Assembly: GCA_037190965.1 (NCBI GenBank)
Contig: JBBCKI010000015.1
Location: 26,264 to 90,263 of the forward strand
Direction of reading: 5' to 3'
DNA length: 64,000 nt
Source: Chthoniobacteraceae bacterium
Lineage (GTDB): Bacteria > Verrucomicrobiota > Verrucomicrobiia > Chthoniobacterales > Chthoniobacteraceae
The first letter of the stretch is position 1. Every line of letters starts with the position of its first letter. The translations under genes and the position numbers were made by a program. The notes beneath the pieces were generated by a model, which was not told the origin of the DNA, searched no databases, and worked only from the letters and a program-made list of their open reading frames with translations. Shown in pieces: positions 1-12,033 of the stretch.

Positions 1-2615
1 AGACCGGGCCTCGCCGTGGCAGGCTGAAGATTTTTTTCGGCATGTGCCCCGGCGTGGGGAAAACCTACGCAATGCTGGAGGCGGCGCGCCAGCAGCAGGC
101 CAAGGGGGTGGAGGTGGTGGCGGGAATCGTGGAAACCCACGGCCGCCCGGAAACCGCCCGGCTGCTCGAAGGAATTCCCATCGTGCCGCGCGCGCAGATC
201 TCTTACCGGGGGATCACCCTGGAAGAGATGGATCTCGACGCGCTGCTCGTCTGGCATCCCGATCTGGTGCTCGTCGATGAGCTCGCCCATACCAACGTCC
301 CCGGCAGCCGCCATCTCAAACGATTCCAGGATGTTCTGGAACTGCTCGACGCCGGGATCGACGTCTACACGACGCTCAATGTCCAGCATATCGAAAGCCG
401 CAAGGACACCGTGCGGCAGATCACCGGCGTCGAAGTGCGCGAGACGGTGCCTGACTCGATGCTCGACCTGGCAGATGAAATCACCCTCATCGATCTCTCC
501 CCGGATCAACTCCGTACGCGCCTCTCCGAAGGGAAGGTCTATTTCCAGGATCGGGCCGCCACTGCCGCCGACAACTTCTTCCGCGCGAGCAACCTCGTGG
601 CGCTGCGCGAGATGTCGCTGCGACTCACCGCCGAGCATGTCGACCGCGACCTGCGCCAGATCAAGGGAGCCACGGGCGAGCCGTGGAAAGCCGGGGACCG
701 GTTGATGGTGGCGATCAGCGGCAGCCCCACTTCGGAGAAACTGATCCGCTGGACTCGCCGCGCCGCAGCCTCGATGGAAGCGAGCTGGATCGCCGTACAC
801 GTGGAAACCCCGGAGTTGTCGTCCTCGCCTCTCAACGAAGTGCGCCTCGGGCTGAATCTCGCCCTGGCGCGGCAGCTTGGCGCGGAAGTCGTGATGGTGG
901 ACGGAAGCAACATTGCCGCCACGCTGTTGCGTGTCGCCAGGCAGCATAATGTCTCTCAGATCATCGTCGGCAAACCGGGGCCGCGTACATTCGGCACGCT
1001 TTTCAGAAGATCGCCGGTGGACTGGTTGGTTCGCCATAGCGGGGAGATCGACATCCAGCTCGTCAAAGGAGAAGAGGAGCCCTCGGGACGTCCTCCCGCC
1101 ACCTCGCTGGCATCGCCGATCCCCAGCAAGCCGCTTTGGCATGACTATGCAATCAGCCTTGCCGTGGTTGCCGGGGTCACGCTTCTTGGGACGCTTATGG
1201 AACCGGTCACCGGTTACTGGGCGATCGCGTTGATTTACCTGCTCGCCGTGATCGCCTGTTCGCTGCGGTTGCGGCGGTGGCCCACGCTTCTTCTTGCCGC
1301 GCTGAGCGCCATCCTTTGGGACCTCCTGTTCATCCCGCCCCGACTGACGCTCAACATTAGCGAAGTGCACGACTTCATGATGTTCGGCATGTACTTCGCG
1401 GTGGCCCTCATTGTCGGTCATCTGACTTCCCGCCTCCGGGAACGTGAAGAGGCCGAACGCCGGGGCGAAGCGCGCGCCACCGCGCTCTACCGGCTCTCGC
1501 GCGCGTTGGCCGCCAGCCGTGAGGCTGCCGAGACCGCCGCCATCGCCGTTCGGCAGATTCGCGAAACCTTCGGCGCGGAAAGCGCCCTGCTGGTGCGCGA
1601 CGAAACCGGTTATTTTTCCGGCGCGGCGCACCCGGCAAGCTCGTTTCTTCCCACTGCCAAGGAGGAAAGCGTGGCAGCCTGGGTCTTTCAGCATCGACAG
1701 GCTGCCGGACAGTTTACCAATACGCTGCCCGACTCCGAAGCGTTCCACCTGCCGCTCATCACGGGGGGCGGCACGGAAGGCGTGCTGGCCATCAAATTCC
1801 CCTCCAAAACGCCGCTCTCCATGCGCCGCAGAGAGTTGCTGGAAGCGTTTGCGGCGCAGATTGCCGTCACCCTCGAAAAGGACCGGCTTGCTTCAGCCAG
1901 CCGAAAAGCCCAGGTGGCGGCGCAATCCGAAAAGCTCCAGCGCACGCTTTTTGACACCGTCTCTCACGAGTTGAAAACCCCGCTCGCCGCGATTGTTGCC
2001 GGGTTGGAACAAGCCGATGAGACGGGTAAACCCGTGCCGGTTGAAACCAGGCAAGCCGTGACGCGCCTGACGCAAGTCGTCAATCATTTGCTCGACATGA
2101 CGCGCCTCGAGTCCGGCTTGCTAAAGCCGCACATGGAATGGGTCGACCCGGGCGAACTTGTCAATGAAGCCTTGGAGGGGATGAGGGCGCAGACGCAGTC
2201 ACACCGACTGACCGTCAAGATCGACTCGGAACTCCCCCCCATCCGGGTGGACCCTGGCCTCATTGAACAAGCGCTGGCGATTCTCGTCTCCAACGCCACC
2301 ATTTATTCCGCGGCAGAGAGCGAGATAGAGATTTCTGTCACGCTTCGCGAAGCCTCGCTGCAACTGGCCGTGGCGGATCGTGGGCCAGGGCTGAAACCGG
2401 GCGACGAAGAGAAGGTTTTCCAACGATTTTACCGGAGCGACGGGAGCCGCGCCGGGGGAATCGGGCTTGGACTCTCCATCGCGCAGCGTCTTGTGGAGGC
2501 GCACAATGGGCGCATCAGCGCGGCCAACCGCCCCGGCGGTGGCGCACTATTCCTTATCGAACTCCCTGCGACGGAACCGCTGCGCCTGCCCGAAGAACCG
2601 TCAAACCTATCATGA
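1..2615 (+). CDS. kdpD: Sensor histidine kinase KdpD (N-terminus lies before the window)
   Basis: Frame is open from base 3: RGRLKIFFGMCPGVGKTYAML (KdpD Walker-A region), DELAHTN, USP-like domain, four TM helices, GAF region, H-box TVSHELKTPL and G-boxes DRGPG/GIGLGLSI. ATGA overlap with kdpE. Confidence 0.96.
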   Translation, partial: TGPRRGRLKIFFGMCPGVGKTYAMLEAARQQQAKGVEVVAGIVETHGRPETARLLEGIPIVPRAQISYRGITLEEMDLDALLVWHPDLVLVDELAHTNVPGSRHLKRFQDVLELLDAGIDVYTTLNVQHIESRKDTVRQITGVEVRETVPDSMLDLADEITLIDLSPDQLRTRLSEGKVYFQDRAATAADNFFRASNLVALREMSLRLTAEHVDRDLRQIKGATGEPWKAGDRLMVAISGSPTSEKLIRWTRRAAASMEASWIAVHVETPELSSSPLNEVRLGLNLALARQLGAEVVMVDGSNIAATLLRVARQHNVSQIIVGKPGPRTFGTLFRRSPVDWLVRHSGEIDIQLVKGEEEPSGRPPATSLASPIPSKPLWHDYAISLAVVAGVTLLGTLMEPVTGYWAIALIYLLAVIACSLRLRRWPTLLLAALSAILWDLLFIPPRLTLNISEVHDFMMFGMYFAVALIVGHLTSRLREREEAERRGEARATALYRLSRALAASREAAETAAIAVRQIRETFGAESALLVRDETGYFSGAAHPASSFLPTAKEESVAAWVFQHRQAAGQFTNTLPDSEAFHLPLITGGGTEGVLAIKFPSKTPLSMRRRELLEAFAAQIAVTLEKDRLASASRKAQVAAQSEKLQRTLFDTVSHELKTPLAAIVAGLEQADETGKPVPVETRQAVTRLTQVVNHLLDMTRLESGLLKPHMEWVDPGELVNEALEGMRAQTQSHRLTVKIDSELPPIRVDPGLIEQALAILVSNATIYSAAESEIEISVTLREASLQLAVADRGPGLKPGDEEKVFQRFYRSDGSRAGGIGLGLSIAQRLVEAHNGRISAANRPGGGALFLIELPATEPLRLPEEPSNLS

Positions 2616-3289
2616 AACCAACCGCCTTGATCGTGGATGACGAAGTGGCGATCCGCCGCCTATTGCGAATTGCGCTCGAAGCCAACGACTACGCCGTGCA
2701 TGAAGCGTGCTTTGGCCAGCAAGGGCTTGCCGAAGCGGCCTGCCGCCGTCCCGATGTGATCCTGCTCGATCTTGGTCTTCCCGATCTCGACGGGGCGGAA
2801 GTGCTCAGGCGATTGCGCGAATGGAGCGAAATTCCCGTTTTGATCCTCTCCGTGCGCGACGCCGAAGAGCAGAAGATCGCCGCGCTCGACGCGGGAGCGG
2901 ACGACTATGTCACCAAGCCTTTCAGCACGGCGGAACTGCTCGCTCGCCTGCGTGTGGCACAGCGACGCGCGAAACCGGCCGAAAGCGGAGCGATCTTTGC
3001 AAGCAACGGCTTGCAGATCGACTTCGTCAGAAGGATCGTCACCGTGGAAGGTCACGAAGTCAGACTCACCGCCACTGAGTACGCTCTACTGCGCCTCTTC
3101 GCCCGGCACGCCGGGCGCGTTCTGACCCATCGGCAAATCTTGCGCGAAGTCTGGGGGCCAAACGCCGAGGAGCACCGTCAGTACCTTCGCGTTTACGTGA
3201 CCCACCTCCGCCGCAAGATCGAACGCAACCCGACAAAGCCCGTTCATATCAAAACCGAATCGGGCATCGGGTATCGATTGATGATGTGA
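2612..3289 (+). CDS. kdpE: OmpR-family response regulator KdpE
   Basis: Receiver motifs LIVDDE, LLDLGLPD, GADDYVTKPF; winged helix with YLRVYVTHLRRKIE and TESGIGYRL; coupled to kdpD. Confidence 0.95.
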   Translation: MKPTALIVDDEVAIRRLLRIALEANDYAVHEACFGQQGLAEAACRRPDVILLDLGLPDLDGAEVLRRLREWSEIPVLILSVRDAEEQKIAALDAGADDYVTKPFSTAELLARLRVAQRRAKPAESGAIFASNGLQIDFVRRIVTVEGHEVRLTATEYALLRLFARHAGRVLTHRQILREVWGPNAEEHRQYLRVYVTHLRRKIERNPTKPVHIKTESGIGYRLMM

Positions 3290-3541: not shown

Positions 3542-4372
3542 CTAACTATCATCGAAAGCATCAGTGGACTCTTCCATCTCAAACTCTTCCGGTTTCTCCT
3601 TCGGCTTGCTTCCCGGTCGGACTGAGCGGTCGAACCAATTCTTCCCGTCGGACAAAAGAGCGGCCCTGAGTTCTTCGGGAATTCGTTCCACGAAGCCGTC
3701 ATACCGTTTCTTGGCCTCCTTGCGGACCTTGACGGGCAGATAGATCACCCGGCCATCATCCTCCGGCAGGCGGTCGGCGCTGATCGCGCATTCGCGTGCC
3801 AGGACAAAGAAGAAGACGTCCTCCGCCAGTGCGGCTTCGCCGATGGTCTCCTTTGGGTTTCGGCGCGCAATCCGCCCCACGGTGGAGTTCTCCAAGAGCC
3901 AATGGGCCAGCTTGACGGCCTTTTGGTTCATCCGGCGGTCGGTGATTTTGGCGAGCAGTGAAGGATAGCCTTCCTTCGCGCAAATCAACAGCAGATCCCG
4001 GGCGGTAGGGCCGTAGCCACCGCTCCCGGCAATGAAGTCGCTCTCCGGAAGGGCTGCGCACTCTTTGACAAGATCGATCGCCAGCTTGCTGATCGCCTTG
4101 ATTCCAGCCGTGCGCAATTGCGCCAGCCACGCCTCGGGGTCCACGGCTCCGGCCGTGGAATGATGCAAACCAAGGCTCAAAATGCCGATGGTGGTGTTGA
4201 GCCCCTTGCGGACGGTTTCCGTGGTGAGCGAACCGTAAAACTTTCGCGAGACCTCGACGACCATCCTGGTCATCTCCTCCTCCCATTGCGGCAGGCGGGG
4301 GTCGCCCTCCCGCTTGGCGAGAGAAAGGGCGACGCTCAAGGCGGGCCGTTTGTCGATGACTTGAATTTCCAC
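3542..4372 (-). CDS. Hypothetical protein, AtcC-like (last gene of the J-domain operon)
   Basis: 276-aa ORF with GTG start, 17 bp downstream of the previous gene. N-terminus IDKRPALSVAL...ILSLGL recalls the AtcC pattern as I remember it (not aligned). Acidic tail. Confidence 0.65.
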   Translation of the reverse strand: MEIQVIDKRPALSVALSLAKREGDPRLPQWEEEMTRMVVEVSRKFYGSLTTETVRKGLNTTIGILSLGLHHSTAGAVDPEAWLAQLRTAGIKAISKLAIDLVKECAALPESDFIAGSGGYGPTARDLLLICAKEGYPSLLAKITDRRMNQKAVKLAHWLLENSTVGRIARRNPKETIGEAALAEDVFFFVLARECAISADRLPEDDGRVIYLPVKVRKEAKKRYDGFVERIPEELRAALLSDGKNWFDRSVRPGSKPKEKPEEFEMEESTDAFDDS

Positions 4373-4389
4373 TGTGCTGTTTTCTTAAA

Positions 4390-5073
4390 CTAGATATCGA
4401 TGAACTCCTCCGTGGCGGTCTCTTCCGGCGTCTGGTGGCTGGCGGCTTCATCGTGAAGGGCACTCAAGACGGAGAAAGCAAACTCGTGCACCGCCTCCTC
4501 GCCGGAACCGTAGACATCCAGCGCCATGGCGGCGATCTCATGAAATTTCTCGGGACGGTTTTCGTAGGTCAGCGCCAGCAACTCCTGGTGCGTTCCGGTC
4601 GAGAAAGGATAGCCATGCGGGCGTTCGAGAAGAGCAAGGGTTTCCTTATGGTTGAGCGCCATGAAGAAGAGAACGTCGGCTCCCAGCTCATGATCGAGCA
4701 AGACCGAGAGCATCTCGATGCGTCGCGCCGGTTCTTCCGAGGTGAGAATCATCGGGCAGAGGAAATCCTCCACGTCTCGCTGGAACGAAACGAAATCCAT
4801 GGTCGGGGAAGGCTGCACCTCTCCCCACCGCGCACCAAGGCGGCTGAAGGCAGCGATGAACTGCTCCGGAGAGATAAAGGCGTGGGCCAGCGACGGCTTG
4901 GTCATATCGGCATCGCTGACCATGACGGCGATCTCGGCGGGTTTGAACTCCGCCACGACCTCCGCCAGCTGGTTATCTCCAGCGTTCCCGGCAATCCGGG
5001 CGAGTTGGTTTTCGGCGGCCCCGGCCCCGGATTGCAGCGCTTCGCGAACGGAAAGGGTATTATTCGTTGTCAT
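4390..5073 (-). CDS. Hypothetical protein, AtcB-like
   Basis: Probable start is ATG 5073 (MTTNNTL, 227 aa), overlapping the upstream stop. Segment AENQLARIAGNAGDNQLAEVVAEFKPAEIAVMVSDADMTKPSLAHAFISPEQF recalls AtcB (from memory). Confidence 0.7.
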   Translation of the reverse strand: MTTNNTLSVREALQSGAGAAENQLARIAGNAGDNQLAEVVAEFKPAEIAVMVSDADMTKPSLAHAFISPEQFIAAFSRLGARWGEVQPSPTMDFVSFQRDVEDFLCPMILTSEEPARRIEMLSVLLDHELGADVLFFMALNHKETLALLERPHGYPFSTGTHQELLALTYENRPEKFHEIAAMALDVYGSGEEAVHEFAFSVLSALHDEAASHQTPEETATEEFIDI

Positions 5074-5536
5074 CGGAAAGGTCGTCTTCTTCGTCGTAAC
5101 CGTCGTAGTCTTCGTCCTCGTCGTCATCCTGTACAGGAGCCGAGGCACGCTTCGGTGCGTGTGAGTTGAGCTGGATCGCGCCCCAGAGGGCGCTTTGATC
5201 GTTTTGGAGCAGGAAATCCCACCCTGCCTTTGCGGAGGCGGCAATCTTGAGCGCCTTCTTTTCGCGAACCTTGGCAATCGCCTCTTCGGCGGGAGTCCGG
5301 TTGGATGCGAGCTGGTCAATCAGCTTGCGGTCGCCGACCTGCATCTTGCCATAAAACGCCATGGCGCCGTAGGCCGGATACTCTGCGAGCAGAGGGAGCA
5401 TCTGCGGAAGCTGTTCCAGCATTTCGTTGCAATGCTTGATGAGTTGTTTTTCGCCTTCGGCCTTGGACTTCGCCCGATCAAAAAACAAGCTAATCTGTTC
5501 GTCGAATTCGGCCTGAATGTTGGGTGTTATTTGCAT
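5060..5536 (-). CDS. Hypothetical protein with acidic C-terminal tail, AtcA-like
   Basis: 158-aa ORF starting 10 bp after the J-domain stop; tail DDDEDEDYDGYDEEDDLSDDNE; second position in the operon. Confidence 0.65.
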   Translation of the reverse strand: MQITPNIQAEFDEQISLFFDRAKSKAEGEKQLIKHCNEMLEQLPQMLPLLAEYPAYGAMAFYGKMQVGDRKLIDQLASNRTPAEEAIAKVREKKALKIAASAKAGWDFLLQNDQSALWGAIQLNSHAPKRASAPVQDDDEDEDYDGYDEEDDLSDDNE

Positions 5537-5546
5537 CTAAAAGAGA

Positions 5547-5807
5547 TCAGCATTGCTGGAAATACTCGGCGACAGCCTGCCGCGCGACTTCGGGCAACGA
5601 TTCCACGGGTTGATTACGAAGGGCTTCGTCGTAGGCCCGGCGCTTCGCTGGGTCACCGAGCACCTCGGCAGCCTCCTGGGCGGCTTTGAACAGCATCGGG
5701 TCTCCACCCGCGTCAGGGTGATGAAGCCGGGCAAGCCTCCGGTGCGCCGCCTTGATCTCGGCAGCATCGGCATTCGGGGCAACCCCGAGTGTCTGGTAGT
5801 GGTTCAT
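5547..5807 (-). CDS. Minimal J-domain (DnaJ) co-chaperone, AtcJ-like, 86 aa
   Basis: MNHYQTLGV...EIKAAHRRLARLHHPD...AEVLGDPAKRRAYD is a complete J-domain with HPD, followed only by a ~25-aa tail. Start taken at ATG 5807. Confidence 0.9.
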   Translation of the reverse strand: MNHYQTLGVAPNADAAEIKAAHRRLARLHHPDAGGDPMLFKAAQEAAEVLGDPAKRRAYDEALRNQPVESLPEVARQAVAEYFQQC

Positions 5808-5951
5808 TCGGGCCGAGCATATACGCACGTTTCCCGTCCGAGAAAGCTCTGTTTTGATATTCCCCGATAGCTCCGTAATCATCCTCACGCGAGGCTTCAT
5901 CCAGCGCACCGGAAGGAGCCGATGATCCGACCTCGCACATCAAAATGGCGC

Positions 5952-8900
5952 CTAGTGGCCGTGAAGAGCTGGAACGCCGTCAGCCCTCTTTGATGACTGC
6001 CCTTTGGCGATGCTCTCAAGCCATGCCATGCATTGCGGGTATTCGAGTTCATTCTTCGAATACTTTGCAAAAACACCAAGAGGCTCAGCTGCTTCCTCAT
6101 GTCTGCCAAGATGATAAAGGGCTGCTCCTTTGTACCAGTAGAGTTGATACAACGTGGGAAATCTGGGAATTGCTTCAGTTGTGGCCTGAAGAAGCCGATT
6201 CCAGTCTTCGTGCAAGGCCGCATCGCTAACACGGAGAGAGTCCCGAACCCGCTGCCCCCCAAGTCGAGACGTGACATTCTCAAACCAGGCTTTTGGGACG
6301 ACCGATGCATCAGACATCGCCAATGGGAGATCGTAAGCATCTTGGCATTCCTTGGGGTCCAATGTTGCCCAAGCCTTCAAGATTGCATGATAGCTTGCCT
6401 TTGTAGCCGCGCGTCTCGCCAGCGCGAACTCCTCACTCATTCCCGCAAGCTCGAAGGCTCGAAGGGATAACGCGAGGAGCCTTTCCGATAGAAGATCACT
6501 GGCCTCATACGCGTCGATCGCTTTGCGAATAAGAGAAGCATCCTTTCTCTGAAGATAAAAACTCAACCTGAAATAGTTTGCAACATTGTCTGAATTTGGC
6601 CCGCGCAGTGTAGACAAAGAGCGCTCCAGCTCCATCATCTCTCCTTTGCGCCATTTGGATTGCACTTCAAACATCCGGATCATCTGGGATGAAGCCGGAA
6701 ACTGCTCCGCATCACGAAACGGTTTAACCAAAGAAACCATCGCTTCGTTCACCTTGGGATCATCCAGATCCATGAGAAAACAAAAACTCATGATAATCAT
6801 CGCCTTCTCAGCATCCCCGGGGAGGCGCTGAAGGGCGGCCGAAGCGAGGTCCAGAGTCAACCTCGATCTGGCTTCCGTGGGATCCCAGTCTCTTATGAAC
6901 TCTTTCCAAAACTCGATATTCGTCAGATCGACCTGTCTGGTTGCGATCTGGTAAAGGCGCGCTTTGGTGGCGGCTGCCTCACTGAGAAAACCGAGGCGTA
7001 GCGGATCACTCAGGGTTCCATAAAATTCCGGCTCCGCCGTTTGCGATTCCGGAAAATGGTGAAGAACAATATCTCGCATCGCATTGACCGCCGGCCGCCA
7101 TAGCTTGAAATGGTTCAGCGATTTAAGGCATCCCATCTGAAGGGAAATCAGGCTTGAATCGTTGGGCATCGTCGCACTGACCTCTGTCAGTTTTTTATAC
7201 ACCTGATCAGCAAGATCGATCTGGTCCATTTCCAGCAATCGCAAGAAACACCGCTTCAACTCTTCGTGCTTGAGAGGAGTAAGCTCACCCTCAAGGAGAT
7301 TGATACAAAAGCTATTGATCGCTTTGCCGGATGACCGGTCAACAGCCAGAGCCTCGCGGCGAAAGTCTGCGATGGCCCGACCGTTTTCACTGAACTTCGC
7401 GTTCAGCGGATGCTTCCGGAGTTTATCAAAATGGACGGCGTCTTCCTCCTTGGAAGCGTTCATCAAAGCAATCCAAAGCAGTCCGATTCTTGTTTGTTCC
7501 GGGAGATCCTGATTATCAATCTCCGGTTCAATCAGGCTCCTTGCCTCCTCTTTTGTATGGGCATAGCTCGATAGTCTCTTCAAAGCTTCTACGAATGCCA
7601 CGTCCCATCGCCCGAAGGGCTGCTCGGGATCGCACGCAACAAGGAGGGTCAATTTGATGATCTCCGGATCGGCAAAATTTCCACCGGTCTCGAAAACCTG
7701 ATCCAGGTTTGAGAGGCGGGGATCGCCGAGGGATTTCGGCTCGGCAAAGTCAAACCAGGCCGGTTTGTTCTTCGCCAGCCAGCGCTCCACGGCCTTCACC
7801 CTCCGTTTCGAATCGATCACGGCGTCAGTAAGCTGCGAATAGCGCTCTGTCAGCGTTTTCAGATCGGCTGCAGCGGCTTTGATCTCGGGATGATCCAATT
7901 CTTGCTTAAGGAGTTCTTCCTCATCGGCAGCCCGTCCCGATTCCCTGTAAAGATCCGCGAGGAACGTGACGCTCAATGCTCGATATTCCAGCTTTTTCGG
8001 ATGTTTGAGCATCGCTTCCAAGGCGGCAATGGCGGGAGGCATCTCACTTTTCACACGGCGTGCCATCATCGCCCAAAGGCGGGACATCACTTCCGAACAG
8101 CGATCCTCTGGTTTGGCCTTCCGATGATAGGCGTGAATCAACTCCAAGGCTCGATCATTGAGGTTGCTATCGATGCATCCAATCGTCGCATGCATCTGAA
8201 TTTCCGGCGCAATCTTGAGATCATCAGATTCGAAATTCTCATAAATTGCCAGGGTCAATTGCCGCATTTCATTGGCGGCGTCGCCAGCCAGGGTCGGCCC
8301 TTGGTAGGCCAGGAAGCGAGTTAATACAGGGAGCAGGGAAGATTGCCACCGCGCCCCATGGGCAAGAAATCGCAGTTTTGTAAACAGTTCAACTGAGTCT
8401 TTTCTGCTCAAGGCGGACTCCATCTCCTGGCAAAAACCGCTGAGATTGGCGAATATCGGAATGACTTTTTCATCGCCAAGCGGGGCCAATCCCAGTTTCT
8501 GCTCCAACTTTAGCCAATCGGCCCACCATTTTTCGCTTCCACTCCAATACTTTTCCGCAGAAGTCTCATCTCCAGTTAAGGCAATCATCTGCTCAATCTG
8601 CCATGCTGTTTTCGCTTCGCGAATGTTGGCAATATTCTCGGAACGGAGAAGAGAAAGTATCCGCAGCGATTCGCTTCTATTCCCCAGTTCAAGGTTTAAG
8701 AGCGCCGCACGAAGGAGATCGTCTTTGACGCTGATATACACCAGTTGGGTTTCAATCTTGCGGTAGATCTCCAAAGCCTTTGCGTAAAGATGCAAGGCTT
8801 CGAAATTCCCGGCAAGCCGTCGGAGCGCGGTGACACGAAAGGCCGCCGGCAAGGAGGGTTCCTCTAGAATATTCTCATGGAGCTTCTTTGCCCCCTCAAT

Positions 8901-10100
8901 ATCTCCCCTTCGATCCGCGACTTTGGCTCGAAGGAAGCGTCCCTCGAGGTAACTTTCATTTTCATGAGGCAGGAGATCGCACAGATCGAGCAAAAGAGGC
9001 AACAACGGCTCAGGTTCATTGCAGTGGCGCTCTTTCCAGTCTGCCATGTTGGCTGCTCTCCACAATGCGGCGGGAAACTCCGCCTCGGGCTCGAAACGGA
9101 GCAGATATTCAAGACTACAAGCAAAGGCGAGGTTGGAGCTTCTCTCCCCCTCAGCTTGAGCGATAGCGCTCGCAAAGTCGGCTTTATTCTCCAATTTGGT
9201 GCCATCGAGGACCGGGCTGGACCGTGGGTTTTCTTTGAGGAAACCGGCCAGTCTGGCCTTGATCTCTCGGGATGCCGTTACTGCGCGGATGAGGTTCCGC
9301 GAAGATTTCAGAGCTTCCCTAAAGCCTTCTCCTGGATCCACGGATTTTTCCGTCTCGATCAATTGCAATATCAGCTCCTCTCTCGTTTCGGCGCGGGAAT
9401 CCGGCAGAAGGGTTCCAACGGACTCCGCGAGTTGCATGAGCAAAGCGTCACGGGATTCAGGTTGCCTTCCCATTACCTTTTGGATCTCTGATCGGACCTC
9501 CGCCATTTGCCCTTCGAGAGCGAGAAGCTTGACGAGAAGCGTAAATACGTGAGGGCTCGCCTCAGTATCAAGAGGAAGTATATTACGCAGGACCTTGATT
9601 GCCTCCATTCCTGATCTCGATTCGAGGAGAACCGCGAGATCATAACCAGCCCAGGACCGTCTATAATCCGAGAGTTGTTTGTCTTCGCTCAATCGCTTAA
9701 GGATGCGCTCGGCTTCCGGGGGCTCAGAATCGGTAATCAACTGAGCCAAAAGGTACTCTCCCCATGCGAAGTACTCGGCAGAAACATTCTCACGATACGT
9801 CGCCAGAAGATGGCGAATCTCAGAAATGCTCTCCTTGCCATCATTTTCGCCCCGTTTCATCCAGGCAAGCTTGGTTCCCGCCAAAAACAGAGTCGTTTTA
9901 TCAAACGGGAAATACTGAATGGTTTTCAGCAGGGCCTCCCGGCGGAGAATGGGATCTCCCTTGCCCGGAAAGCGCTTATCGACGAGTTCCAACTGCCCCT
10001 CTCCCGTGGCCAACATAGGAAAGTCATCCAACGTCAAGGGGCTTTCAGACAAAACTGCCAGTGGGAGCGGAGAGCCCCAGGGAACGATCGAGCCATGCAT
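5952..10100 (-). CDS. Large helical/TPR-rich protein; probably the C-terminal part of a frameshifted gene shared with 10045-12033
   Basis: 1382-aa open frame with TPR-like repeats (e.g. YWYKGAALYHLGRHEEAAEPL). No signal peptide; overlaps the upstream ORF by 56 bp. Confidence 0.75.
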   Translation of the reverse strand: MHGSIVPWGSPLPLAVLSESPLTLDDFPMLATGEGQLELVDKRFPGKGDPILRREALLKTIQYFPFDKTTLFLAGTKLAWMKRGENDGKESISEIRHLLATYRENVSAEYFAWGEYLLAQLITDSEPPEAERILKRLSEDKQLSDYRRSWAGYDLAVLLESRSGMEAIKVLRNILPLDTEASPHVFTLLVKLLALEGQMAEVRSEIQKVMGRQPESRDALLMQLAESVGTLLPDSRAETREELILQLIETEKSVDPGEGFREALKSSRNLIRAVTASREIKARLAGFLKENPRSSPVLDGTKLENKADFASAIAQAEGERSSNLAFACSLEYLLRFEPEAEFPAALWRAANMADWKERHCNEPEPLLPLLLDLCDLLPHENESYLEGRFLRAKVADRRGDIEGAKKLHENILEEPSLPAAFRVTALRRLAGNFEALHLYAKALEIYRKIETQLVYISVKDDLLRAALLNLELGNRSESLRILSLLRSENIANIREAKTAWQIEQMIALTGDETSAEKYWSGSEKWWADWLKLEQKLGLAPLGDEKVIPIFANLSGFCQEMESALSRKDSVELFTKLRFLAHGARWQSSLLPVLTRFLAYQGPTLAGDAANEMRQLTLAIYENFESDDLKIAPEIQMHATIGCIDSNLNDRALELIHAYHRKAKPEDRCSEVMSRLWAMMARRVKSEMPPAIAALEAMLKHPKKLEYRALSVTFLADLYRESGRAADEEELLKQELDHPEIKAAAADLKTLTERYSQLTDAVIDSKRRVKAVERWLAKNKPAWFDFAEPKSLGDPRLSNLDQVFETGGNFADPEIIKLTLLVACDPEQPFGRWDVAFVEALKRLSSYAHTKEEARSLIEPEIDNQDLPEQTRIGLLWIALMNASKEEDAVHFDKLRKHPLNAKFSENGRAIADFRREALAVDRSSGKAINSFCINLLEGELTPLKHEELKRCFLRLLEMDQIDLADQVYKKLTEVSATMPNDSSLISLQMGCLKSLNHFKLWRPAVNAMRDIVLHHFPESQTAEPEFYGTLSDPLRLGFLSEAAATKARLYQIATRQVDLTNIEFWKEFIRDWDPTEARSRLTLDLASAALQRLPGDAEKAMIIMSFCFLMDLDDPKVNEAMVSLVKPFRDAEQFPASSQMIRMFEVQSKWRKGEMMELERSLSTLRGPNSDNVANYFRLSFYLQRKDASLIRKAIDAYEASDLLSERLLALSLRAFELAGMSEEFALARRAATKASYHAILKAWATLDPKECQDAYDLPLAMSDASVVPKAWFENVTSRLGGQRVRDSLRVSDAALHEDWNRLLQATTEAIPRFPTLYQLYWYKGAALYHLGRHEEAAEPLGVFAKYSKNELEYPQCMAWLESIAKGQSSKRADGVPALHGH

Positions 10101-12033
10101 GCAAAGAGAGGTGGGAATTGAAGAGAGCCTGGAACTTGTCCGGCGATATAAAAGACTCCTTCACACGTAACTCGAGCCTGGCGATACATTGATGATCAAG
10201 GAATTCCCAGCTGGCTGTAATATCGAACACTTCGGACCGTATCTGAAGAAGACGAGGGAGCTCGATTGGCTGTAAACCCTCGGGAAGGCTGATTCGCGCA
10301 ATGACCTTTACGGTATCAGGCCAGAGGTGGAATGATGTCTGGCGACGCTTGTCGGAACCTAGATCATTGAACAGAAGGCTGGCTTGTGGAAACGAAACGC
10401 GATGCTCCCGTCGGGAGTGATCATTGGCGGACGGAACAATAAAATAAGTTTTCAACTGATGCCTGCCATCCCAATTCTCAAGAGAACTTTTAGTGACGTC
10501 GATGATCTCTGCACCTTTGAAGAATGCCTGTATCAAATCGTTCGCCCTTGATCGGAGCCCATCGTTGTCAAGACGAGCGAAGACATGAGCGTTGACGGCA
10601 CCGTAGTATCCGCCGCTGTTCTTGGTCATCCACCCTGAAAGTTCGCCGCTGGATGAAAGCTTCATGTCGAACTCGTAAGAAAACTCCCCTGCGCTTTGCG
10701 CGGGGGTTCGAACCCATTCCGCTCCTTTGCTGCCAATAAGCAAGCCATCACGATCAGCATCTCCCGGAGAGATCAGCCCAGCTTTGGCATAGGCGATCGT
10801 TGGATCGCAAAAAATGGGGCGGCCGGGTTCGAGATACACGGCAAGAATGGCGTGATCGAACTGACGATAATCGGGACTCCTCCGTTCGATTCGCCCCACG
10901 TTCTCCGTGTTCAACAGGACGAGGGAAGCGTCGATTCCTTTATGCCGCAACATCGCACGAAGCAGGGTCGCTTTATCCTTGCAATCGCCGTACTGATTCG
11001 CCCAGACCGCACTGCAATCATAAGGTTGTATATCGGCCGTTCCGAATGCGAGACTGAGATAACGGACCTCCCTCGCTACCTTGGTGGTGAGGATATCCAA
11101 CACCTCGGCCCGGTTCTTTGCATCCTTTGTCCATTCATCGACCTCTCGGGCAAGAGTCTCTGAAATCATGGACCGCTCTTCCACGAGCGGATAATACCAT
11201 TTCACAAAGGCATCCCAGTCGGGAAGAGTCGTCAGGTAGAGCACTGGGCCAACCTGATCTGTGGGCGGGGAAGAAATTTCATTGGGACGCGCTGGGATGT
11301 CTTTTCCACTCCAGATCAATCGAACGCGATCTCCGGCCAGATTTTTCTTCTGCGGCTCTGGGATATTCCCGCCCACTGGGGTGATCTTGAGGCGATCAGC
11401 CATCGGAGCGGGCATCTCGATCACGTACCGAAGAGTTTGGATGGGCCACCCCCAGGCAAACCACTTCCCCGCAGTGAACTCCCCGGGAATCCGGAATTCG
11501 CTCTCACTGATAACGACGATCGATTCCGTTATGGAGCCCGGTTTGACGTTGGGAAAAACCAACCGAAGCTCACCGGATCCGCTGTAGACTGAGTTATCAG
11601 CTTGACGCTGAGGACTTTGAAGAATGGAGGCGTTTGGAGCAACCGGTAATCTTTTCCCGTCAGGAAGAATTGTCTGAGCTTGAACCAGGCAGATCTTCTG
11701 ATTCGCTTTGCGGTATCCCCACGTATCCTCCGCGATTGCCTTGGCACCGGCGTCAGTCAAAGCTTTGCTGACATAATGATGGACCGTATAGCGATTTCCC
11801 TTCGCATCAAAAAATTGAACTTCTTCGTTCAGAAGAACGATGCAGTCGGAAGCCGAGCCCACCGTCACCTGTGAAGGCGATTTCAAAACCTCGTCAACAG
11901 GGGTAAGCAGCGGCAAGACGGCTTCCGTGAAAATCGACGGTGCCTGCCGCGAAACTTCCTCCCCAACAGCCGTGCAAAAAGGAATCGGAATAACGATCGC
12001 AGCAACGATCCTTGTGATACGCCACAGTAACAT
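10045..12033 (-). CDS. Secreted DUF3857 + transglutaminase-like domain protein
   Basis: Signal-like N-terminus; DUF3857-type motif LVFPNVKPGS; Cys-His-Asp triad YGDCKDKATLL / QFDHAIL / FCDPT. Confidence 0.88.
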   Translation of the reverse strand: MLLWRITRIVAAIVIPIPFCTAVGEEVSRQAPSIFTEAVLPLLTPVDEVLKSPSQVTVGSASDCIVLLNEEVQFFDAKGNRYTVHHYVSKALTDAGAKAIAEDTWGYRKANQKICLVQAQTILPDGKRLPVAPNASILQSPQRQADNSVYSGSGELRLVFPNVKPGSITESIVVISESEFRIPGEFTAGKWFAWGWPIQTLRYVIEMPAPMADRLKITPVGGNIPEPQKKNLAGDRVRLIWSGKDIPARPNEISSPPTDQVGPVLYLTTLPDWDAFVKWYYPLVEERSMISETLAREVDEWTKDAKNRAEVLDILTTKVAREVRYLSLAFGTADIQPYDCSAVWANQYGDCKDKATLLRAMLRHKGIDASLVLLNTENVGRIERRSPDYRQFDHAILAVYLEPGRPIFCDPTIAYAKAGLISPGDADRDGLLIGSKGAEWVRTPAQSAGEFSYEFDMKLSSSGELSGWMTKNSGGYYGAVNAHVFARLDNDGLRSRANDLIQAFFKGAEIIDVTKSSLENWDGRHQLKTYFIVPSANDHSRREHRVSFPQASLLFNDLGSDKRRQTSFHLWPDTVKVIARISLPEGLQPIELPRLLQIRSEVFDITASWEFLDHQCIARLELRVKESFISPDKFQALFNSHLSLHAWLDRSLGLSAPTGSFV

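Follow-up and report, generated by a model that had tools for sequence, protein, structure and literature searches.

A divergent, non-canonical atcJABC operon that probably couples Hsp70 to RNA polymerase in a Chthoniobacteraceae bacterium

Introduction

The atcJABC operon was defined in Shewanella oneidensis MR-1 (SO_1850, SO_1849, SO_1848 and SO_1846; available text of PMC6715715). Its proteins are covered by the NCBIfam models NF050028, NF047888, NF047889 and NF047890 and by the Pfam 38.1 families AtcB_N (PF27486) and AtcB_C (PF27450). Here we analyzed a block of four genes at positions 3542 to 5807 of a 64,000-nucleotide stretch from a Chthoniobacteraceae bacterium (assembly GCA_037190965.1, contig JBBCKI010000015.1, positions 26,264 to 90,263; in the following called the window). 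With a probability of roughly 0.8, we consider this locus a divergent, complete and non-canonical atcJABC operon coupling Hsp70 to RNA polymerase (RNAP). Membership in Atc is meant in the broad sense; the locus lies outside the canonical subfamily described by the NCBIfam models, which carries a P-X7-W (PX7W) motif in the AtcJ tail.

Both the Atc system as such and its occurrence in Verrucomicrobiota have been published before, and the locus is largely ordinary. The Atc system of Verrucomicrobium sp. GAS474 was characterized among the non-canonical systems in a preprint (bioRxiv 10.64898/2026.09.07.749886; in the following called the preprint), according to which the verrucomicrobial AtcB tested there neither co-purified with Escherichia coli RNAP nor caused toxicity. 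The preprint surveyed 294 UniProt reference proteomes, mainly of beta- and gammaproteobacteria, and its main text names no Chthoniobacterales clade; the accessible part of PMC10939069 adds nothing on the range of Atc. The present locus provides residue-level predictions for a point left open by the preprint, namely why some AtcB proteins do not bind E. coli RNAP, and a model in which AtcB sits where the clamp grips downstream DNA. In addition, the locus belongs to a clade in four Chthoniobacterales families that was missed by the curated models. This clade is patchily distributed and has apparently been transferred at least once, so that the vertical inheritance described in print needs qualification.

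Gene arrangement of the locus

The four genes, atcJ (5547..5807), atcA (5060..5536), atcB (4390..5073) and atcC (3542..4372), are co-oriented on the minus strand and encode 86, 158, 227 and 276 amino acids, respectively. A gap of 10 bp separates atcJ from atcA, atcA and atcB overlap by 14 bp, and 17 bp lie between atcB and atcC. Both the reading frames and this tight spacing agree with the preliminary description of the locus, made from the sequence alone. Homologs of the four genes with 35–72% identity and the same starts exist in other genomes, and therefore these are not chance open reading frames. Longer in-frame starts (GTG at 5909 for atcJ, TTG at 5319 for atcB) were dropped because the homologs begin at the chosen codons. 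The GC content of the block is 0.55–0.64, with a genome mean of 0.59, and the GC content at third codon positions (GC3) of the genes is 0.68–0.74.

The first gene encodes a stand-alone J-domain protein, as had been stated before (Pfam DnaJ, E = 9.6e-18; 64.5 bits, cut-off 27.8), with a short helical C-terminal tail. Its HPD motif, the Hsp70-activating signature, occupies residues 30–32 (5712..5720, minus strand) and is invariant in all 15 aligned AtcJ proteins. AtcA consists of a globular N-terminal part and an Asp/Glu-rich C-terminal tail (residues 137–158; 5063..5128, minus strand). AtcB is an acidic protein (isoelectric point 4.5), all-helical in its model and a predicted binder of the RNAP subunit beta'. 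AtcC is helical, starts with GTG and aligns with canonical AtcC over its N-terminal ~110 residues. None of these three matches a Pfam or NCBIfam family at cut-off, in line with the earlier remark that they lack an obvious domain.

The locus shares with S. oneidensis atcJABC, as far as the accessible text on the latter extends, the gene order, the atcA/atcB overlap, a short J-protein with a tail of ~21 residues, an AtcB Asp pair 23 residues apart, an AtcC of near 300 amino acids and an acidic AtcA tail. It differs in the distance between atcJ and atcA, which is 10 bp here compared to 120 bp according to the same text. The identity to canonical Atc, measured against Aeromonas-type stand-ins, is ~20–30%, with all scores far below the NCBIfam cut-offs. 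Furthermore, the locus has L-X7-V in place of P-X7-W and, in contrast to canonical Atc, its J-domain lacks a 9-residue insertion after HPD. The GAS474 system is closer in that it comes from the same phylum, has the order atcJ-A-B-C and an AtcJ without PX7W, and keeps the two AtcB Asp residues; according to the preprint, however, GAS474 AtcA lacks an acidic disordered tail, whereas the AtcA of this locus has one.

Each protein matches its positional counterpart in a canonical operon

As canonical reference we used an operon from an Aeromonas caviae record (L016), whose four products all score above the respective NCBIfam cut-offs (AtcJ, AtcA, AtcB and AtcC), together with 29 related loci. Such Aeromonas-type proteins served throughout as stand-ins for canonical Atc, and the S. 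oneidensis sequences themselves were left out of the comparison. When the four proteins were compared to the four canonical ones by hhalign, the matches fell on the diagonal (AtcJ 1.7e-17, AtcA 6.5e-4, AtcB 2.9e-5, AtcC 1.6e-3), while the best of the 12 off-diagonal gene pairs reached 0.034. The AtcJ match extends over 82 columns with the tail included and that of AtcA over 52 columns. This pattern bears out the remote homology to atcJABC that the preliminary description had proposed, with strong similarity for AtcJ and AtcB and weak similarity for AtcA and AtcC. Its further point, an Atc system in a different phylum, is right as to the presence in Verrucomicrobiota but not as to novelty, given the GAS474 system described in the preprint.

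We then hid the canonical proteins among 29,106 genome frames as a decoy test. Using profiles built only from verrucomicrobial sequences, the canonical counterpart was the top non-self match for AtcA (E = 0.0046), AtcB (E = 6.9e-10) and AtcC (E = 0.0019). In the opposite direction, the canonical AtcB profile placed the AtcB of this locus first among the 29,106 frames (E = 4.7e-4). The verrucomicrobial AtcC profile matched five of five canonical AtcC proteins at 8.3–20.7 bits, with 3.7 bits for the best of 100 shuffled sequences. An AtcC comparison with four canonical rows in its own alignment was circular and was not counted.

The strongest link is provided by AtcB. A single-protein search of 50%-identity representatives yielded 69 relatives, 53 of which were aligned with the query (alignment A1), and the resulting profile retrieved canonical AtcB at E~1e-20. 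AtcB itself matches NCBIfam NF047889 weakly (E = 7.4e-4). The same holds at E ≤ 0.01 for 34 of the 61 relatives scanned, none of them over the cut-off; the other eight are short or odd in length. The top ESM Atlas cluster for AtcB was AtcB_N/AtcB_C (0.96), at a recognition value under the reliable range, and a 47%-identical relative carries a precomputed Pfam AtcB_N assignment. AtcC had no usable match in the ESM Atlas. The sequence motifs quoted earlier for the third and fourth genes are present; that of the third gene fits the divergent clade better than Aeromonas-type AtcB, which shares only its core. Judged from these sequence comparisons, the assignment appears firm for AtcB and probable for AtcC, and for AtcA it is suggested by a weak likeness together with position and the acidic tail.

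The fallback considered initially, an undescribed and unrelated J-protein system with a chance likeness to Atc, is largely refuted by these results. The matches of AtcA and AtcC are weak singly and fail the curated models, which would suit such a system; four positional matches in the same order, the AtcB link at E~1e-20, the Atlas cluster and the precomputed AtcB_N assignment leave it very improbable.

AtcB is predicted to bind the DNA-facing side of the beta' clamp

Two aspartates of AtcB, D33 (4975..4977, minus strand) and D56 (4906..4908, minus strand), align with D37 and D60 of S. oneidensis AtcB. Each is Asp in 53 of the 54 rows of A1 and in all 22 verrucomicrobial AtcB proteins, and their spacing of 23 residues is the same as for Shewanella D37/D60 and for D28/D51 and D33/D56 in the preprint.

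The AlphaFold2 model of AtcB is all-helical with a predicted local distance difference test (pLDDT) score of 94, and Foldseek returned no match to it at E ≤ 0.001. Four of the top six VIA-align rows were cytoplasmic N-domains of MgtE (PDB 8gpv, 8gps, 2yvx, 2oux; best Z 7.2, root-mean-square deviation 3.4, 122 aligned residues, 9–20% identity), likewise without a Foldseek match. As this Z is below the level the tool regards as meaningful for helical proteins, the likeness may serve as a lead on the fold only. Separately, a protein of 2505 amino acids (P0056) contains 15 stretches matching AtcB residues 2–98 (E = 2.5e-12, 24% identity), hinting that the N-terminal helical unit of AtcB occurs as a repeat in large proteins, which fits the weak MgtE-N likeness. 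For AtcC (model pLDDT 88) the best fold-search Z was 4.1, with only residues 8–143 well tested. Neither of the two model-based searches would establish a new fold.

The preliminary description had suggested modeling AtcB with RNAP. We modeled AtcB residues 1–215 with a 150-residue fragment of the beta' subunit from the same genome (residues 101–250), next to three controls. The complex scored 0.65, the best control 0.00; the mark for this score is reached by 116 of 157 solved complexes and by 2 of 215 mismatched pairs, counts that are rough here since own alignments were used. The runs agreed in at least 87% of contacts, with a partner pLDDT of at least 87. In the model, D33 contacts beta' 211–214 at the start of the 210–222 helix and D56 contacts beta' 132–133, so both aspartates fall in the interface without having been specified beforehand. 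Recall of a solved complex is unlikely because Foldseek found no solved AtcB-like chain. The model thus supports, but does not prove, binding of AtcB to its own beta' clamp.

The helix involved contains KKLAKR at beta' 217–222, corresponding to KKLTKR at 215–220 in E. coli. This basic helix is present in all 26 RpoC proteins compared, whether or not the genome carries atc, and is therefore permissive rather than diagnostic. The modeled interface also holds beta' R134, I215 and K218; their E. coli counterparts R133, K213 and K216 are listed in PMC7822876 among the clamp residues contacting downstream DNA. If the model is correct, bound AtcB would occlude the DNA-binding face of the clamp.

At several of the contact positions E. 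coli differs, with P131-L132-D134 compared to S132-S133-Q135 and N209-E211-T212-K213 compared to R211-K213-Q214-I215 in the subunit modeled here. AtcB position 25, which touches I215 in the model, is Glu in the five canonical or Oleispira-type rows, which are not independent of each other, whereas most of the 22 verrucomicrobial rows have Ala, Leu or Thr there. As a hypothesis, such contact differences may explain the lack of binding to E. coli RNAP that the preprint reports for verrucomicrobial AtcB. Extending this, we tentatively suggest, at somewhat less than even odds, that AtcB of the Trp-less clade plugs the beta' clamp on its downstream-DNA side until DnaK releases it, with host specificity set by a small co-varying code. 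The code would pair position 25 of AtcB (small or apolar here, Glu in canonical proteins) with beta' I215 (Lys213 in E. coli and Aeromonas) and would further include beta' S132-S133-R134-Q135 and R211-S212-K213-Q214, as opposed to P131-L132-R133-D134 and N209-S210-E211-T212 in E. coli. If true, the code would explain the failure of verrucomicrobial AtcB on E. coli RNAP, and the near-identical beta' surface across Chthoniobacterales would explain how the operon could move between families. Because the verrucomicrobial AtcB of the preprint neither co-purified with RNAP nor was toxic, a toxicity assay of this AtcB in E. coli would likely be negative.

An Atc homolog with a changed target or trigger is also conceivable, in which the chain of AtcJ, AtcC, AtcB and DnaK is kept and the target is not RNAP or the stress is not cold. 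The residue beside the second Asp of AtcB would accord with a changed target, being K59 in 22 of 22 verrucomicrobial rows and Phe or Ile in the five canonical or Oleispira-type rows. Against this, both RNAP-binding aspartates are invariant, the beta' helix is kept and the model docks the Asp pair on beta', so we regard this possibility as unlikely and prefer RNAP as the target.

Tails, Hsp70 partners and proposed mechanism

The AtcJ tail aligns without gaps with the canonical tail. In an alignment with three canonical AtcJ proteins and by hhalign, L71 and V79 take the P and W positions, and L71-X7-V79 (5571..5597, minus strand) thus represents a putative degenerate AtcC-binding motif. According to the preprint, PX7W is not needed for Atc membership; AtcJ tails that lack the Trp or the motif remain able to bind AtcC, as indicated by genetic evidence in Janthinobacterium and by two-hybrid assays in Solidesulfovibrio, and most AtcA proteins have acidic tails.

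Three full-length paralogous genes for DnaK-class Hsp70 were found in the genome. The second (a 606-aa frame) directly follows a gene whose J-domain match is weak (E = 6e-5, under the cut-off; locus G000:C68:41306-43852, minus strand), and the third is located on contig C6. Both loci may represent specialized Hsp70 systems.

From the complex model, and by analogy to experiments in Shewanella, Collimonas, Janthinobacterium and Solidesulfovibrio, the following mechanism can be proposed. Acidic AtcB would dock on the beta' clamp of the host RNAP, with D33 at the start of the 210–222 helix and D56 at 132–133, where the E. coli enzyme holds downstream DNA. Bound in this way, it would hinder DNA loading or the stability of the open complex. 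AtcC would bridge AtcB to the tail of AtcJ, here a hydrophobic helix without Trp, and AtcJ would recruit DnaK. DnaK would then limit or release the AtcB-RNAP complex, with AtcA as a likely accessory. A role in the cold is carried over from Shewanella by analogy, and the trigger here might be cold or another stress.

Several observations weigh against an Atc operon acting on RNAP. No protein meets its NCBIfam Atc cut-off (AtcJ to NF050028, 34.6 bits compared to 150; AtcB, 19.1 bits compared to 440), and the NCBIfam models for AtcA and AtcC match nothing in this genome at E ≤ 10. In reverse searches, the canonical AtcA profile did not have this AtcA in its top eight, and canonical AtcC profiles reached this AtcC at E = 11 and 4.7 only. 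One of 460 shuffled sequences hit the AtcA profile at 9.4 bits, within the span of 5.4–11.2 bits of true canonical AtcA. The PX7W motif of the AtcJ tail is not kept, and since three full-length Hsp70 paralogs are present, the DnaK partner is not fixed. The complex model comprised a beta' fragment, placing clashes with the whole enzyme outside its scope, and just residues 217–218 are touched in the helix that, as judged by its deletion, is required for binding in E. coli.

Distribution and inheritance

The closest AtcB among named records, in records titled Chthoniobacteraceae, is 62% identical, in support of the verrucomicrobial origin proposed in the preliminary description. In genome collections that include the present genome and many incomplete assemblies, the A1 profile had matches at three levels: 11 of 151 family genomes, 20 of 401 genomes (in four families) in a sample of the order, and 3 of 401 in a sample of the phylum, where one match was weak and partial. 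Apart from the present genome, 22 had a clear match; we examined 21 of them and left out G713, in which the gene is split over two contig ends. The full order J-A-B-C was present in 20 of these 21, and in the remaining one (G459) the contig ends inside the atcA gene. The flanking genes vary among the six loci with listed flanks; therefore, the four genes are the unit, and their linkage is conserved, as a dedicated system had been expected to show.

For 19 genomes, both a concatenated Atc alignment and RpoC were available for phylogenetic comparison. The g1 trio, the g15 pair, f13 and f16 were recovered alike on both trees, and patristic distances of the 18 members of the order correlated with a Pearson coefficient of 0.63 and a Spearman coefficient of 0.43. 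In two genomes of the family (G008 and G032; L080-L083), the rpoC matches were split by an internal TGA, likely due to assembly frameshifts.

One difference concerns G672, a genome of family f8. Its RpoC is 94–96% identical to that of the other two f8 genomes (over 323 residues only), whereas its Atc proteins share 32–33% identity with the other f8 copies and 46% with this locus and group with g1 at 100% bootstrap. Monophyly of f8 was rejected on the Atc tree (approximately unbiased test, p-AU 9.5e-6), on a quick tree and for a group picked after the tree had been seen. The placement of G006 differs between the two trees as well. The separate position of the f8 operons suggests lateral transfer. 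The placement of G672 could result from such a transfer, but also from hidden paralogy or from a contig binned to the wrong genome. Because the deep branches of the AtcB tree (81 rows) are not resolved, we do not claim a donor.

Such a distribution raises the question of whether the operon is a mobile, conditionally toxic module resembling toxin-antitoxin or defence systems, in which AtcB poisons RNAP unless restrained by AtcC, AtcJ and DnaK. Its spread and loss would then be due to this toxicity and not to cold adaptation. Such a view addresses what the operon does for the cell and does not conflict with the proposed molecular mechanism. The patchy presence, the differing flanks and the rejected f8 clade would fit it, as would the finding of the preprint that AtcB alone is toxic and rescued by AtcJ plus AtcC in three species. 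On the other hand, the genus-level groups g1, g15, f13 and f16 are identical on the Atc and RpoC trees, the GC content is near the genome mean, and in Shewanella the deletion of atcB itself impairs growth in the cold (preprint; PMC6715715). A search of viral contigs with one query, an Oleispira-type AtcB, gave none among 35 candidates, the proteins of this locus not having been used as queries there, and the sole match filed as plasmid is a 4.9-Mb record with rpoC. Weighing both sides, we consider the mobile module improbable, slightly more so than a changed target, and retain the assignment as an Atc operon coupling Hsp70 to RNAP.

The record in question (NZ_AP026896.1; L016/L084), filed as a plasmid of Aeromonas caviae, has both rpoC and atcJABC and is thus probably a chromosome. 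Two records titled Akkermansia muciniphila (L009 and L012) carry the operon with an AtcB 46–50% identical, like the loci titled Chthoniobacteraceae; these titles may be wrong. A more distant verrucomicrobial operon (L014:728-3206, genome G209) encodes an AtcB that is 31% identical and branches among unassigned metagenomic proteins, apart from the Chthoniobacterales copies, and thus there may be at least two Atc lineages in the phylum. Candidatus Paceibacterota was the taxon of one cluster among the 30 AtcB relatives looked up.

Neighbouring genes

A scan for promoters and terminators yielded chance-level numbers (1 compared to 1.0 and 3 compared to 3.8 expected), and the operon strand lacked a promoter-like site. 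The block sits 144 bp downstream of a gene for 1382 amino acids without a Pfam match and converges on the ordinary two-component genes kdpD and kdpE (42-3289, plus strand). The 1382-aa gene overlaps a 662-aa gene with DUF3857 and transglutaminase-like domains, and the pair (5952-12033, minus strand) lies directly upstream of atcJ. The two upstream genes and kdpDE were considered as parts of the system and rejected, being absent from the flanks of the six other loci listed. With a GC content of 0.52–0.53 and a GC3 of 0.57, compared to the genome GC of 0.59, the 662-aa and 1382-aa genes resemble an acquired block.

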